The notes below the pieces were generated by a model, which saw nothing but the letters and a program-made list of their open reading frames with translations, did no database searches and was not told where the DNA came from. This document shows, one piece after another, positions 13,301-53,550 of a stretch of DNA of 64,000 nucleotides; position 1 is the stretch's first letter, and every line of letters begins with the position of its first letter. The translations under genes and the position numbers were made by a program. This DNA is from Chitinophagales bacterium. GTDB lineage: Bacteria > Bacteroidota > Bacteroidia > Chitinophagales > LD1. The stretch spans positions 1,259 through 65,258 of the forward strand of contig DATGWP010000239.1 of assembly GCA_035299425.1 (NCBI GenBank), given 5' to 3'.

Positions 13301-13751
13301 AACCAACATATCTGGCGCAAATGGAACCTACCTTTGGGCTCCTGCACAAACATTAAGCTGTAGTAACTGCAGTGCGCCAGTAGCTACACCAGCTACAAAT
13401 ACATTTTACACACTACTGTATATAGATGGCAATAATTGTACAACCGGCGATACCATACTGGTTAATGTAACGCCGGTTGGTAGTGTATTTTATCCTACAG
13501 CATTCAGCCCCAATGGAGATGGCAATAATGATACCTACCGTGTACTGGGTGCCAGCCCAAAATTTTTCAGGTTGAAAATTTTTAACCGCTGGGGCGAACT
13601 GGTATTTGAAAGCAGTAACATAAACGATGAATGGGATGGTATCTATAAAGGGTTACCGCAACCTATGGCTGTATATGTTTATTCATCCACAGTAACCCTT
13701 CAAAACAACCAAACCCGCGACTATAAAGGAAGCATAACATTATTACGATGA
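10365..13751 (+). CDS. giant surface protein: lamin-tail domain, SprB repeats and a T9SS type-B (CHU_C/gliding-associated) C-terminal domain
   Basis: The start is moved to ATG 10365 (MNFRKIEIVRLIFTLLAISPLVTPVTAQ signal), because the ORF-track start lies inside the hairpin. The LTD pattern is VINEVMHYPS...EYVELFN...GWVALYN. There are at least 8 SprB-like repeats (NPTCAG.NGS...Y.W.......L..G.Y.VT..D..GC). The C-terminus is FYPTAFSPNGDGNNDTY...NRWGELVFES...WDG. Confidence 0.85.
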   Translation: MNFRKIEIVRLIFTLLAISPLVTPVTAQVVINEVMHYPSTAQGIVASGTEYVELFNTNPCQAVDISCFILGCADNDGGIVNNAGSIVIPFGTVIPPYGHYVIGTSSSSANPASVDFKTNTNTGNYCTVGNFVLANGDGWVALYNASGIPVDALYWTVSAGEANKVGTDTDFDDNPCTPPTVANCVAISTTLPSAKQIFQNYPSAISYIGQYVNANTISRIPDGGTWTRVVAPSINDATVGNCNGGTCLTPSGITFTATKVNPTCAGSNGSITISVTPAGNATYNWSANANTGNAATASNLNTGTYSVTITQNGCTKDTSITLTAPSNLALVISNPVNPTCAGNDGSLTVALSGGSGPYTITVDTGSSSYNFTSPVAGQINQGNLPAGTISISVIDGSGCTASASTTLTAPANCCNLSLSAAVVQPTCGQSNGSISVTPQSGSSSYSYNWAGGQSTNAVTGVAAGIYQLTLTDNSTANCFIDTSFTLNSNSSLTITISNVVNPTCAGNNGSLTVALSGGSGPYTITVDTGSASYNFTSPVAGQVNQGNLPAGTISINVVDGGGCTASASTTLTAPANCCTFTVSANSTQPGCGTANGSISLTVSGGSGNYAYSWSNGQSTASLSALQAGTYQVTITDNAFAGCTRDTLFTLSNPNSPAINTLNLVQETCQGTSDGSITIVASGGSGSLSYQWSANAATGNLATAANLTAGQYYFTVTDAANCQTSGSATIQSGICCNLQIAVNATPTTCGFSNGDISVQAINGSTPYNYALKPGPLQPNSFFDQLPAGSYEVLVVDNNGCADSVSITVAGSTNTLAIAFTTTGVSCNGGADGTVASTVTGGSPLYSYAWSNGSTNSTISAVSAGQYIVSVTDNDGCSVTGTAAVSQPAPLVVTLGNDTSICTGNQLNIEAPAGYQAYSWSNGETGNQIQVSTTGLYTLTITNSNNCSASASVNINVAIPVKPDLGSDISVIEGESTLLSATNISGANGTYLWAPAQTLSCSNCSAPVATPATNTFYTLLYIDGNNCTTGDTILVNVTPVGSVFYPTAFSPNGDGNNDTYRVLGASPKFFRLKIFNRWGELVFESSNINDEWDGIYKGLPQPMAVYVYSSTVTLQNNQTRDYKGSITLLR

Positions 13752-16276
13752 AAACTATATATATGAAAAATTACCGCCAATCAGTACTAACCTTGTTTGT
13801 TCTGTTGCTATTTGTAATTAGCAATGGCCAGATACTTACCGAAAGTTTCGATTCAACATCGTTTCCACCCGCAGGCTGGAGCAATGTACGCATTGCTGGT
13901 TTTGCATCGCCGGGCACATGGCTGAGAGTTGCTGCAGGTACTAACCCTACCTGCACACCGCACTCTGGCGCAGCTATGGCTTATTTTAATTCATATAGCT
14001 GGAGCGGTGGAAACGCTTCTGACTTAGCTACACCTACTCTTGATTTTTCATCGGGCACATTTGCAGTATCGTTCTGGATGTATCGCGATGGAGGACAAAC
14101 TTCAAAGTACGATAGTGTGGCAGTATATGTAAATACAACAGTTTCATCTGCAGGTGGCACGCGTATAGGCCTGGTAAACAGAGCTGGTAATCTTTCCCCT
14201 GCAGTGCAGGCCGACGGCTGGTACCAATATACGTTCAACATACCGGCATCATATAGCACGGCAACTAATCATATCATATTTAAAGCAACATCCGATTTCG
14301 GCAACCGGATGTATATAGATGATGTTACAGTGTACTTGTTTACCCCACCCACAGATGTGGACTCTGTAACTGCTACCAGCCAGCAGGTATGTACAGGCAG
14401 CCAGCTTACCTTACACGCCAATGGTATTGATGGTGCCGTATACTGGTATGCCGATTCGTGCGGTGGCACCAGTATTGCTACCGGCGATGGCATTACAGTT
14501 TCGCCCTCACAAAACACCACTTACTTTGCCCGTAATTTTAACAATAATCTGTTTAGCATTAACTGTGCATCGGTTAGCATAACTGTAAACCCGGTGTATA
14601 ATACCGTGGTATACGATACCATATGTGCCGGGCAAAGCTACTTACTACACGGAGGCCAACACGCAGATACAACAGGAACGTATAGTATTAACCAGCTAAG
14701 TGCCGCTGGCTGCGATAGTAACACTACAGTATACCTTACTGTACGTCCTGCAACCTATGGGGCATTGCAGCTAACAGGTTGCGCCGGCAATACTATTACC
14801 TATAACAATAAATCATATACGTCGGCAGGGGTGTTTGCCGATACGCTTGTTAATTACTATGGCTGCGATAGCATTGTAACACTCACAATAGCATTTACAC
14901 CAGCCATTACTACCAACGTCCAGCAAACTATCTGCTTTGGCGATACATTCCTGTTTAATGGCAATGTTTATTTTGAAAACGGCACCTATTATGATACACT
15001 AACAGCAGCAAATGGCTGCGATAGCATACTAACCATAACCATAACACAGTTACCTCTGGCAACAGGTAGTATTGCACTTAGCAGTTGCTTTGGCGGTTCG
15101 GTAGAATATAACGGAGAATTTTACTCCTCTACAGGCACTTACACCGACACGCTTACTGCCACTACCGGTTGCGATAGTATTGTAACTATACAAGTGGCAA
15201 TTAATGCGCCGCTGGCTTCGGCTGTTAACTTTACTATCTGCAATAATGATTCGGTGTTGTATAGCAATAACTATTATTACACAGCGGGCACATTTTACGA
15301 TACCCTTACAGCACAAAGCGGTTGCGATAGTTTTGTAACCATTATTATTACACAGCTTCAGGTTCTCTCATCCACTGTAAATTTTGCCTTATGCCAGGGC
15401 AGCAGTATTGAGTATAATGAACGGGTATATTCCATAGCAGGTACCTACACTGATACTTTAACAGCTACAAGTGGCTGCGACAGCATAGTTGCTATACAAA
15501 TTGATGCATTGCCGGCAAACTCGTCAAACGTCAACCTTAGTATCTGCCCGGGCGATTCGATAGTTTACAACAACATAACCTATACTACAGCAGGCAGCTA
15601 TACAGATACCCTTGCAGCTGCTACCGGCTGCGATAGTGTGCTATACATTAACGTAAATACACTGCCACTAATAACCAGTACGGTTAATATTACTATATGC
15701 CCCGGCGACAGCGCCTTTTATAATGGTAGTTATTACTACGCTGCCGGCACGTATACCGACACACTTTCCAGTATTTACGGCTGCGACAGTATTAGCCTGA
15801 TAAATATATCTACCTATAATGTAGACACCCCTGTGGTGACGCAAAACGGTCAGGTACTGGAAACCGGTATTTACAACTCATACCAATGGCTTAAAGACAA
15901 TAGCCCTATATCAAATGCTAATGGGCAAACCTACGCTGTAGCACAAAACGGCAACTACGCTGTTTTAACCACCGATGAAAACGGTTGTACTGCTATATCG
16001 CAGGCTGTTAATGTAACCGGTACGGATATACAATATAGTGCGGATAGCCGTATTACATTGTACCCTAACCCCGCAAACACTACCCTATACTTTAAAGGGC
16101 TTAAAATTAACTGCACCTACAATGTTATGATTTATAACCCCATTGGGCTGTTAGTTACTAATAGCTACCTAACAGCAAGTAACGGTTTAGATGTAAGCGG
16201 TTTGCCATCAGGTGTGTATACTCTTTCTTTGCAAAGCGGATTGGAGGTTGTACATTACACTTTTATAAAACAGTAG
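13748..16276 (+). CDS. T9SS type-A cargo: choice-of-anchor-J-like N-domain plus about 10 GCDS-motif repeats
   Basis: 842 aa. ATGA overlap with the upstream stop. The N-domain is ESFDSTSFPPAGWSN...MYIDDVTVY. A repeated roughly 45-aa module follows (C.G.S...NG..Y...GTYTDTLTA..GCDSIVT). The CTD is LYPNPANTTLYF...GVYTLSL. Confidence 0.85.
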   Translation: MKTIYMKNYRQSVLTLFVLLLFVISNGQILTESFDSTSFPPAGWSNVRIAGFASPGTWLRVAAGTNPTCTPHSGAAMAYFNSYSWSGGNASDLATPTLDFSSGTFAVSFWMYRDGGQTSKYDSVAVYVNTTVSSAGGTRIGLVNRAGNLSPAVQADGWYQYTFNIPASYSTATNHIIFKATSDFGNRMYIDDVTVYLFTPPTDVDSVTATSQQVCTGSQLTLHANGIDGAVYWYADSCGGTSIATGDGITVSPSQNTTYFARNFNNNLFSINCASVSITVNPVYNTVVYDTICAGQSYLLHGGQHADTTGTYSINQLSAAGCDSNTTVYLTVRPATYGALQLTGCAGNTITYNNKSYTSAGVFADTLVNYYGCDSIVTLTIAFTPAITTNVQQTICFGDTFLFNGNVYFENGTYYDTLTAANGCDSILTITITQLPLATGSIALSSCFGGSVEYNGEFYSSTGTYTDTLTATTGCDSIVTIQVAINAPLASAVNFTICNNDSVLYSNNYYYTAGTFYDTLTAQSGCDSFVTIIITQLQVLSSTVNFALCQGSSIEYNERVYSIAGTYTDTLTATSGCDSIVAIQIDALPANSSNVNLSICPGDSIVYNNITYTTAGSYTDTLAAATGCDSVLYINVNTLPLITSTVNITICPGDSAFYNGSYYYAAGTYTDTLSSIYGCDSISLINISTYNVDTPVVTQNGQVLETGIYNSYQWLKDNSPISNANGQTYAVAQNGNYAVLTTDENGCTAISQAVNVTGTDIQYSADSRITLYPNPANTTLYFKGLKINCTYNVMIYNPIGLLVTNSYLTASNGLDVSGLPSGVYTLSLQSGLEVVHYTFIKQ

Positions 16277-16278
16277 TA

Positions 16279-17625
16279 TTGAAAGGTAAGCGTCTATTTG
16301 AATTATTAATCTGCTTAAATAAAACAGAACACCGGCAGTTGGTTAACCAATGTAAGCTGTCGTTGGATAAACGCGCGGCTGATTTACTTACATTACTTAA
16401 TCATCGCAATCTGAACGATAAGGTATTTGAAAAAATACTATGCAATATAAAAAGCAGCCGTAGCTTTAAAAGTCAGCAAGAAGCCGATAAGTACATTCGA
16501 AGATGGATAGACTATAGTTGTAAGGAGATAGAAGCGCTAATAATCAAAAACACGTTTTCCGCCCCTGCCAACAGGTATCATCAGTTGGCCTCCCATTACG
16601 ATGCGTTAAATAATAGCACGCTAGCGCATTACTACACTTTCGAAGCAATTGCAATTGCAGAAGCACAAGACGACCACCAAACGCTTATTGATATGTACGA
16701 CATACAATTGCGTTGGCTTGGCAGAAATCAGAACAAGCAAAATATCCGGCAGATTGATGCACTGCTTGGGAAAAGGAAAAAAGCAGCGGAAAGAGCATAC
16801 CACAAGGCCATGTCATATTTTTATACAGTATGCTCATCGTTATACATAGATAATCCGTACAATCAGGCTTACATCAAAATAACTCCGGATAAGCAGGAGT
16901 TTGAAAATCTACGTAACGGCACCGACGACGAATACTCTCAAATACTATATACCTTATCTGAAGTAAGGTTTAGCTTTTACAACAAACCTGTATTTGAGCG
17001 TAGTATCAAAAACCTGTTTAATCAAATAGCTTCAAGTGGCCTTACAACTAAACAAAAAGAATACCTCGAACGAAGTTGCCGGTACATAAGGGTAATTGGC
17101 GGACTATACTACGGATATTCTATAGATGTTATGATTGCTGATACAGAGCGCATACTGGATATAATGCTTAAAAACAGGATATACGACACAGTAAGTTTCT
17201 TTTTTCTGCTTTTTTTCCTGCTAATTAAAAATGATGTATCCAGATATAATTTTCTGCTAAACAAGTATGGTACTGTGTTTTTTAGCAATACCAGCAATGA
17301 TTACTTGCTTTTACTGCAAGTCCTTAAAGATTATAAAACCTGTAATGATTTTTTAATGCCGGAAGCTTTACAACAAGCGAGCTACTCTACTAATTTGTAT
17401 GTAGCTGCCTGGAGTAAGCTGTTAGAGCTTGCTACATATAAAAACAGTACACGTTTACATGCATCGTTGGTAAAACGCATTAAGCGCTTTAATAAGTTGA
17501 ATAACACCCTGAAAATAATAAACCACCCGCTTACTATTTTGCTGGAGTGTATAGATAGCAAAAAGAACGTTTCGCCGGCAATATTTGAATACTATCAGTG
17601 GGTTCTGCAGCTACAAAACAAATAG
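16279..17625 (+). CDS. all-alpha hypothetical protein (cassette-1 member of the one-per-cassette set)
   Basis: 448 aa with a TTG start 2 nt after the upstream stop. It is Leu/Lys/Tyr-rich and helix-like throughout, with no signal peptide. The N-terminus LFELLICLNKTEHRQL weakly resembles LHELIHALDKNEKKFL of the 29402 gene. Confidence 0.55.
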   Translation: MKGKRLFELLICLNKTEHRQLVNQCKLSLDKRAADLLTLLNHRNLNDKVFEKILCNIKSSRSFKSQQEADKYIRRWIDYSCKEIEALIIKNTFSAPANRYHQLASHYDALNNSTLAHYYTFEAIAIAEAQDDHQTLIDMYDIQLRWLGRNQNKQNIRQIDALLGKRKKAAERAYHKAMSYFYTVCSSLYIDNPYNQAYIKITPDKQEFENLRNGTDDEYSQILYTLSEVRFSFYNKPVFERSIKNLFNQIASSGLTTKQKEYLERSCRYIRVIGGLYYGYSIDVMIADTERILDIMLKNRIYDTVSFFFLLFFLLIKNDVSRYNFLLNKYGTVFFSNTSNDYLLLLQVLKDYKTCNDFLMPEALQQASYSTNLYVAAWSKLLELATYKNSTRLHASLVKRIKRFNKLNNTLKIINHPLTILLECIDSKKNVSPAIFEYYQWVLQLQNK

Positions 17626-17692
17626 GGCAATACCGGAAAAAATGAAATCCACTTAATCAAATTTATGTTGTTATACAATGTAAATTTGGTCT

Positions 17693-18674
17693 GTGTACGG
17701 ACTTACAAAAAAGCATATATTTTTTTTACTGGCAGCAGTACAAATATCTATTGTCAGAGCACAAAATGTAGGTATCGGAACAAACAATCCGCAAACTAAA
17801 TTACATGTAGCAGGGGCAATAAGTGTTAAACCCTCTTACCAAACAGCAGGCAACACTATTACAATACCCGACAATTACTCCATAGTCCGAATTTCTGATA
17901 ATGGGAGTAATTCAACAAATAACGCAGTAATTGCTAATGCTGTAGAGGGTCAATATCTTACTATATACAACAAAGATGCAGAATCTGTAAGCTTTTACGG
18001 CTATTTCATCACTGCTTTAAATGGTGTTTCATCTTTTGCTTTTATTGATAATGCCTGGCGATTAATTGCCAGTAACAATTTGGGGGGGAACTACAGGAGC
18101 TACCGGTGCAACCGGTAGTATCGGACCGGCAGGTGCCACTGGCCCTGCCGGTGTTACCGGCCCATCCGGAAACACCGGCATCACAGGCCCAACCGGCGCT
18201 ACTGGTGCAACCGGATCTGTTGGGGCAACTGGTCCGGGAGGCTATACACTAGTGGTTGGGCACGCAAACACTAGTTTGCTAAAAAACAGTACTTACGTTA
18301 CAGGTGGGGCTTTTGACTTTGCAGCGTTAACCGTGTTTAACGACCGTCCCTCCCGGCAAACTATAGCTCCTGCTTCGGGGCAAATAAAGAGTATACAGGT
18401 AAATAGCGCCGTGGCGGGAACTTTGGCAGGTTCATCTAACGATAATTTTACCATGCTGGTTAAAAACATCACGCAGAATACCAGTCAGAATTTTGTAACT
18501 AATTATGGGTTAAGTTCCGGAAACCTTACCAGTGCATCGCGTTTAGACAACTACACTTTAAATACACCCCTTAATGTTAATGCAGGAGATAAAATTCAAA
18601 TACAAATAATCACCCCCAACTGGACAACAGAGCCTACCGGAGTGTATCAAAAATTTACCATCTACATTGAATAA
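17693..18674 (+). pseudogene. collagen-like triple-helix surface protein split by a frameshift at a G7 tract (ORFs 17693..18118 and 18066..18674)
   Basis: ORF1 carries a signal peptide, the [16 protein letters not shown] tail-fibre-type motif and an N-domain ending ...[14 protein letters not shown]2 in the +1 frame continues [21 protein letters not shown]... (about 17 Gly-X-Y) plus a 140-aa globular head. Deleting one G of 18082-18088 joins them in frame. Confidence 0.7.
18082..18088 (+). repeat. homopolymeric G7 tract at the frameshift point
   Basis: TTGGGGGGGAAC read directly from the sequence. Confidence 0.9.
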
Positions 18675-53460: not shown

Positions 53461-53550
53461 GGGGGGGCTCACCACCCCGTCCCGCCTTCGGCGGGCCACC
53501 CCTCCTTAAAATGCCGCCGCGGTTGCGGCGAAGGAGGGGAGCATAACAGC
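53461..53550 (+). repeat. GC-rich multi-hairpin intergenic repeat (family 1)
   Basis: GGGGGGGCTCACCACCCCGTCCCGCC-TTC-GGCGGGCCACCCCTCCTTAAAATGCCGCCGCGGTTGCGGCGAAGGAGGGGAGCATAACAGCC. It has the same order of blocks as 40495-40623. Confidence 0.7.

Follow-up and report, generated by a model that had tools for sequence, protein, structure and literature searches.

A run of seven guanines (G7) divides a single gene of an environmental Bacteroidota genome into two open reading frames, ORF1 and ORF2. We think it fairly probable that this is a recent null allele, generated by slipped-strand mispairing, of a fiber protein that is conditionally dispensable, and that it is not an evolved switch. The gene lies in the window, by which we mean the whole 64-kb stretch of DNA that was analyzed (44% G+C), and its features are collected in Table 1.

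Table 1. Features of the split gene and its surroundings, in window positions
Feature	Position	Strand	Length or basis
Upstream neighbors, intact: 842-aa Ig_7 / Por_Secre_tail (T9SS-sorted) protein and 448-aa protein without known family	13748..17625	+	
Candidate Bacteroidota -7 promoter element TAAATTTG (TAnnTTTG)	17681..17688	+	12 nt 5' of GTG start codon
ORF1: signal peptide and N-domain of about 107 aa, then out-of-frame tail and stop	17693..18118	+	141 aa
Predicted Sec signal peptide MYGLTKKHIFFLLAAVQISIVRA, cleavage before QN	17693..17764	+	sequence pattern; orthologs with equivalent hydrophobic N-termini
ORF2: collagen stalk and head, +1 frame, without signal peptide of its own	18066..18674	+	202 aa
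G7 homopolymer, +1 frameshift site	18082..18088	+	in-frame ancestral state inferred as TTG GGG GGA (G6), from ortholog DNA
Collagen-like stalk, 17 Gly-X-Y triplets	18087..18239	+	Pfam PF01391, E 3.8e-7
C-terminal globular head, predicted all-beta	18237..18671	+	145 aa; head-only AlphaFold2 model

One gene in two frames

A check of the sequence places the G7 inside TTGGGGGGGAAC, at the boundary between an N-terminal domain (the N-domain) and a collagen-like stalk. Beyond it, ORF1 continues for nine out-of-frame residues (NYRSYRCNR), and the frames of ORF1 and ORF2 overlap over 18066-18118. The first-pass annotation of this DNA had proposed that the G7 splits one gene at this boundary, and that one G fewer or two more would rejoin its halves. 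Both proposals hold: the computed frame is open over 326 aa when one G is removed and over 327 aa when two are added, and the base check is joined by an end-to-end match of the rejoined protein to intact, syntenic orthologs. One feature of contingency loci is therefore present, namely a repeat in the coding region whose change in length restores or breaks the frame.

The read-through protein matches proteins of 318-334 aa across 94-100% of its length. The best match, P0001, has 88% identity (E 3.4e-176), and further full-length matches are found in P0002 (77%), P0003 (69%), and P0004 (68%), so that the uninterrupted protein foreseen at first pass corresponds to a genuine and conserved architecture. 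On the orthologous contigs, an 837-877-aa Ig_7/Por_Secre_tail protein and a 447-448-aa protein without known family are encoded directly 5' of the gene; this order of neighbors is common to L009, L012, and L028, and is seen in L015 for the homolog of the 448-aa protein. Because the match runs end to end and the neighbors are the same, we regard these genes as orthologs, and the split into ORF1 and ORF2 as something other than a chance juxtaposition. Among 66 species representatives of the same family, no true ortholog was found, only paralogs composed of the N-domain plus collagen.

A motif of the TAAATTTG type is kept at an identical distance (-12) in L009, L028, and L012. We take it to be a candidate promoter on the strength of the Bacteroidota -7 consensus, and its conservation 12 nt before the GTG start codon points to a putative dedicated promoter and an almost leaderless transcript.

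The public annotation leaves the locus unmarked as one disrupted gene: NCBI nr lists ORF2 as a 202-aa protein in its own right, and ORF1 is absent from the protein collection. Users of these records should read the ORF2 entry as the 3' portion of a 326-aa gene that is disrupted.

Two other homopolymers can be recorded here. The second G7 of the window, at 53461-53467, and the only one besides that of the split gene, is intergenic and sits in a G+C-rich, palindrome-rich stretch (ggctcaccaccccgtcccgccttcggcgggccacccctcc...gaaggagggg); a G9 at G000:C141:28683 has a similar context, and the two may belong to a repeated structured element. Within the split gene itself, an in-frame run of eight Ts (17720-17727) in the part that codes for the signal peptide forms a second slippage-prone site, with a T7 equivalent in L012 and L015.

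Predicted architecture of the fiber protein

The gene product is probably an exported, trimeric fiber protein, its export, trimerization, and surface location being predictions from sequence. The N-terminus follows the pattern of a signal peptide (K-K, a hydrophobic core, and then VRA/QN), and the labels "signal peptide" and "tail-fiber-type N-domain" that had been attached to ORF1 are based on such sequence patterns, for the N-domain on a short motif; a Pfam search of ORF1 gave no match. The N-domain of ORF1 aligns with the intact orthologs and also with the N-domains of much longer collagen-like paralogs in the same genome and genus. The protein is without a T9SS C-terminal sorting domain.

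The earlier estimate of about 17 Gly-X-Y triplets proved exact, with 17 counted and the Pfam Collagen family matched. The score of PF01391 on the stalk is 30.2 bits vs a cut-off of 27.2, and the Gly-X-Y series is uninterrupted, which places the protein among the bacterial collagen-like proteins. Stalks among the relatives range from 0 to >70 triplets, and in the stalkless L030, L031, P0005, P0123, and P0124 the N-domain is joined straight to the head (272-289 aa). Judging from these sequences, stalk length is a freely variable module in this family of fiber proteins. Stalk indels of 9 and 18 nt, both in-frame, occur among the window, L009, L011, and L028, and P0130, a relative described below, has one additional Gly-X-Y triplet.

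The two parts of the gene also differ in how far they have diverged. Between L009 and L011, dS is 1.79 in the N-part vs 0.33 in the stalk plus head, a strongly discordant pair of values, and the window is closer to L028 than to L009 in the C-terminal part only. Such discordance between gene halves suggests recombination or module exchange between lineages.

For the head, a structural model provides some guidance. For P0001 in full length, AlphaFold gave a model of too low a quality for use (pLDDT 46), and the structure search used the head alone, for which AlphaFold2 gave a model with a mean pLDDT of 66 and a pTM of 0.66. Nearly all of the top 50 Foldseek matches in the PDB are ExsFA/BxpB, C1q-family (Cbln1, C1qA, adiponectin), or TNF-family structures; their match probability is about 1, yet their TM scores are 0.35-0.43 on this pLDDT-66 model. 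The head is thus probably a C1q/TNF-like jelly roll, as far as the model can be relied on. A Pfam search of the head matched no family, BclA_C (PF18573) included. The family to which the head belongs is small, with 172 representatives (E <=1e-3) among 1.84 billion proteins, and in these the domain is almost always C-terminal.

With the head so modeled, the protein would resemble the BclA-type exosporium glycoproteins of Bacillus and the C1q/TNF superfamily in its order of parts: a targeting region at the N-terminus, then a stalk of Gly-X-Y triplets, and at the C-terminus a trimeric jelly-roll head. It differs in its Gram-negative Bacteroidota host and in carrying a Sec signal peptide and a GIGT..P..KLHV N-domain, with no exosporium-targeting motif. 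We would best describe it as a BclA-like layout (collagen stalk plus predicted C1q-like head) on a Bacteroidota-type N-domain. A second likeness, in sequence features, may be to the MAT fibers of Bdellovibrio bacteriovorus (PMC10769870), which are likewise cell-encoded and signal-peptide-bearing, with phage-fiber-like modules and interchangeable heads. The window genome has many fiber paralogs with a shared N-domain; in contrast to the MAT fibers, the window protein is much shorter and has a collagen stalk.

History of the tract and age of the lesion

If the G7 were an inherited device, the tract should recur among the orthologs, and it does not. The window reads AAT TTG GGG GGG AAC (TTGGGGGGGA) at the junction, and L009 and L010, at 87% nucleotide identity to the window, read AAT TTA GGG GGA ACT (TTAGGGGGA, G5), as does L028 at 86% identity in a wider alignment that includes the flanks. 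Farther away there is no comparable tract, the junction being ATA GTG GGG GCA (GTGGGGGCA) in L011 (77% nucleotide identity), ACG GGT in L012 (66%), and TCG GGA in L015 (64%). A synonymous TTA>TTG change and one extra G are what set the window apart from its nearest orthologs. Tract conservation, one of the marks by which a contingency locus is recognized, thus fails across the orthologs, the closest of which have a G5 interrupted by A, and G runs of at least 6 are absent from seven further intact relatives (lake-water Bacteroidota MAGs). On this sequence comparison, the G7 tract came about by accident, in one lineage, from the codons used for Leu-Gly-Gly, and is no inherited device.

A second dataset with the G7 allele was found neither in pattern scans nor in the protein collection; exact-flank scans (GCCAGTAACAATTT N4-10 AACTACAGG) of metagenome and genome contig collections gave 0 matches, and no other truncated N-halves were found with ORF1 as the query.

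The age of the lesion was estimated from a codon alignment in which the frameshift was read through for analysis and changes were polarized by L009 and L011. Of the changes on the window branch, 53 are synonymous and 8 non-synonymous; 3' of the shift the numbers are 47 vs 6, for an omega of about 0.04 (0.044) that is as low as on intact branches, and the codon alignment holds no secondary stops or out-of-frame indels in ORF2. Had the gene been broken throughout the branch, about 137 downstream non-synonymous changes would be expected vs the 6 observed, and these 6 imply that the broken period occupied less than about 4% of the branch, or a dS below about 0.012. An old, decaying pseudogene, considered as a candidate, was rejected on this downstream omega and the lack of secondary lesions. 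The first-pass annotation had also entertained a fixed pseudogene, with mutations accumulating in ORF2; the 47 vs 6 changes, a strong signature of purifying selection, contradict it. By this measure the lesion is recent, transient, or artifactual. An undecayed ORF2 does not choose among these, suiting a sequencing or consensus error and a reversible switch equally well.

Lesions of other kinds in the same gene were found in two other lineages. The cluster of ORF2 at 90% identity leads to a 73-aa fragment on L028, a 7.6-kb syntenic contig (Logan SRR23086387), where the conserved Trp of FIDNAW in the orthologous gene (L028:4406-5472) is replaced by a stop (TGG>TGA), 10 codons 5' of the position of the window G7. 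P0126 and P0127, which are near-identical to the L028 allele, are intact at this Trp codon. In the lineage of P0003, the 233-aa P0130 ends in ITPA-HRAN*, where intact alleles go on with ITPATGQIK; it is encoded on a 152-kb JGI contig and hence is not truncated by a contig end. Its final HRAN* is one residue apart from HRTN*, found in an alternative frame of the DNA of L012 (orthologous gene L012:5001-5978), and this HR(T/A)N* match indicates that P0130 is frameshifted inside the head, a lesion known at the protein level and from that alternative L012 frame only. When JGI metagenomes were searched for related loci, the result was a single distant locus, and the contigs of P0130 and P0126 were not recovered. 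In an informal tally drawn from heterogeneous metagenome assemblies, 3 of about 14 alleles are broken, each by a different lesion, for a binomial P of 0.008 at a background pseudogene rate of 3%. These findings suggest that in nature the fiber protein can be spared under some conditions or at times carries a cost, and independent lesions in two other lineages raise the prior for a genuine frameshift in the window.

That prior bears on the possibility that the true sequence is G6 and the gene intact, the extra G having come from sequencing, from polishing, or from the collapse of a mixed MAG population. The G7 rests on one assembly, a 242-contig draft of 4.9 Mb, and both the draft state of that genome and the want of any independent observation of the allele in the collections searched speak for such an artifact, as does the unrelaxed constraint on ORF2. 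The homopolymers of the same assembly tell against it. When frame junctions are defined as sites at which two long frames would be fused by a change of one base, they are found at 28 of 2755 long homopolymers (1.0%) vs 190 of 20,000 random positions (0.95%), which indicates no systematic homopolymer error in the assembly. Longer tracts in housekeeping genes, of the G8-G9 class, remain in frame: a G9 in a NUDIX hydrolase, a C8 in RuvC, a C8 in a PAS histidine kinase, and a C9 in an FGE-sulfatase-type protein are all in-frame long coding tracts with their Pfam domains intact. The knock-outs of the gene in other lineages, being real and independent, weigh on the same side. The assembly error that the first-pass annotation had named as an alternative is unlikely, given these in-frame tracts and the absence of an excess of homopolymer frame breaks, but we still leave it a minor share of the probability, in particular for a consensus taken from a mixed population.

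Accident or switch

We favor a null allele that arose by chance slippage, and the steps would be as follows. A synonymous TTA>TTG change would have lengthened the G5 that encodes Gly-Gly to G6, and replication slippage, the mechanism we infer, would then have added one G (G6 to G7). The frame would thereby shift at the N-domain/stalk boundary to give a null (OFF) allele, with presumed loss of function, and the products would be a secreted 141-aa stump and a stalk-plus-head ORF without an export signal. The lesion would be very young and private to the window lineage, with reversion of G7 to G6 possible and merely incidental. In the two other lineages the gene was lost separately, through mutations of different types. 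Selection for gene loss, or tolerance of it, may lie behind this pattern. In M. smegmatis, a 7G tract undergoes frameshifts at a rate of 3.1e-8 per generation, about 100x the neutral substitution rate (PMC10334774); with 7G frameshifting this fast, the G6/G7 run would be the likeliest place for a spontaneous frameshift.

The same tract could instead be a functional slipped-strand switch between G6 (ON) and G7 (OFF), serving a bet-hedging surface fiber and representing a newborn contingency locus like glpK of M. tuberculosis. The tract does lie within coding sequence, where two domains of a probable surface protein meet, yet it is missing or interrupted in every ortholog, and no other surface gene of the genome has a disrupting tract. 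Seven-nucleotide tracts are able to act as reversible switches (PMC10334774), but G7 is short for a classical switch, at the lower limit of hypermutable length, and no polymorphism of tract length appears in the data examined. Repeated loss in other lineages suggests the fluctuating selection under which a switch might be kept; the lesions in those lineages, however, are irreversible. The undecayed ORF2 is what a transient OFF state predicts, and mismatch repair, on the opposite side of the argument, is probably intact (the genome has MutL, and its MutS is preserved over the first 625 aa, up to a contig end). Taken together, we find a functional switch distinctly unlikely.

A mismatch-repair mutator was raised as a candidate by the absence of a MutS_V match and was rejected, since mutS runs off contig C93 and MutL is present. 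The gene at G000:C93:5523-6547 is a 625-aa open frame with MutS_III present, on a contig of 6547 bp; MutS_V is assembled nowhere in the genome and is present in 37 of 39 congeners, and an assembly gap is the most likely reason for its absence, rather than a mutator genotype.

The genome as a whole does not hold the repertoire of surface-gene tracts by which contingency loci can also be recognized. Its G/C tracts of at least 7 number 61, of which 41 are in frame within long ORFs and one, the G7 at the head of this study, is gene-breaking; the longest tracts belong to housekeeping genes or intergenic DNA. The longest of all, a G10 at G000:C80:85195-85204, lies in a 178-codon open frame without obvious identity, about 1.2 kb 5' of an ORF of 2113 codons in which there is also a G7, at 86445. 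What the first-pass annotation saw as the "classic layout" of a contingency locus does not survive these comparisons: the tract is unconserved, it is the sole gene-breaking G/C tract in the genome, and sister lineages carry non-repeat lesions.

Full-length protein might also be made from the G7 allele by recoding: the ribosome could shift into the +1 frame at G GGG GGA, or RNA polymerase could slip while it transcribes the Gs. In favor of this, a tRNA-Gly that slips by +1 inside the G7 could pair again without mismatch, the frames share the overlap noted above (18066-18118), and ORF2 is undecayed; against it, all orthologs are in a single frame, so that a frameshift is unconserved, and the site lacks both a stall codon and a stimulatory element: AAC, the codon that follows the Gs in the A site, is neither a stop nor rare. 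As far as we know, the known cases of productive transcriptional slippage are mostly on A/T runs of at least 9. We hold recoding to be very improbable, and a programmed ribosomal frameshift gene in particular was rejected, with the orthologs all in frame and no stimulator context.

In tract length, the nearest documented counterparts come from M. tuberculosis, whose 7-nt tracts include that of glpK (Bellerose 2019; Safi 2019; surveyed in PMC10334774), where a 7C run in the coding sequence likewise has its frame shifted by one added base. Tracts of this kind mutate about 100x faster than single sites and can revert (PMC10334774). The difference is that the M. tuberculosis tract is conserved and its indel recurs across the phylogeny, whereas the tract described here is lineage-specific and has been seen in one state.

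Classical contingency loci include the poly-G/C loci of Neisseria, Haemophilus, and Campylobacter, and the CAACA repeats of SclB/Scl2, a collagen-like adhesin, in Streptococcus pyogenes. The split gene is like them in that a repeat in the 5' or internal coding part of a surface gene sets the frame, and SclB shares its collagen-like character as well. The classical tracts, however, are longer, conserved, length-polymorphic within and between strains, and many per genome, and the G7 tract shows none of these features in the data examined. A nearer parallel to a plain loss may be the nonsense mutation of scl1.3 in M3-type group A Streptococcus (PMC5005324), which is likewise a lineage-specific truncation of a collagen-like surface protein that is intact elsewhere, and whose loss alters adhesion and biofilm behavior (PMC5005324); the organism, the domain set, and the type of lesion differ.

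As it stands, then, the window holds an ordinary young homopolymer frameshift in an accessory, uncharacterized surface-fiber gene. It can serve as a case study of how contingency-locus calls made from a single genome are testable by tract conservation, by genome-wide comparison of homopolymers, and by branch-specific dN/dS.

A further scenario, to which we give little credence, is that fluctuating selection on the gene in natural Chitinophagales-like populations (for example, as a phage receptor or a predator handle) has produced the repeated independent losses, and that TTA>TTG gave rise to a G6/G7 switch that is newborn and reversible. This phylum is known mainly for phase variation based on invertases. 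If the scenario were true, the window would show a contingency locus at the moment of its origin. The point that most repays follow-up is that 3 of about 14 known alleles of an otherwise strongly constrained gene have been broken independently, which hints that the fiber may carry a conditional cost.
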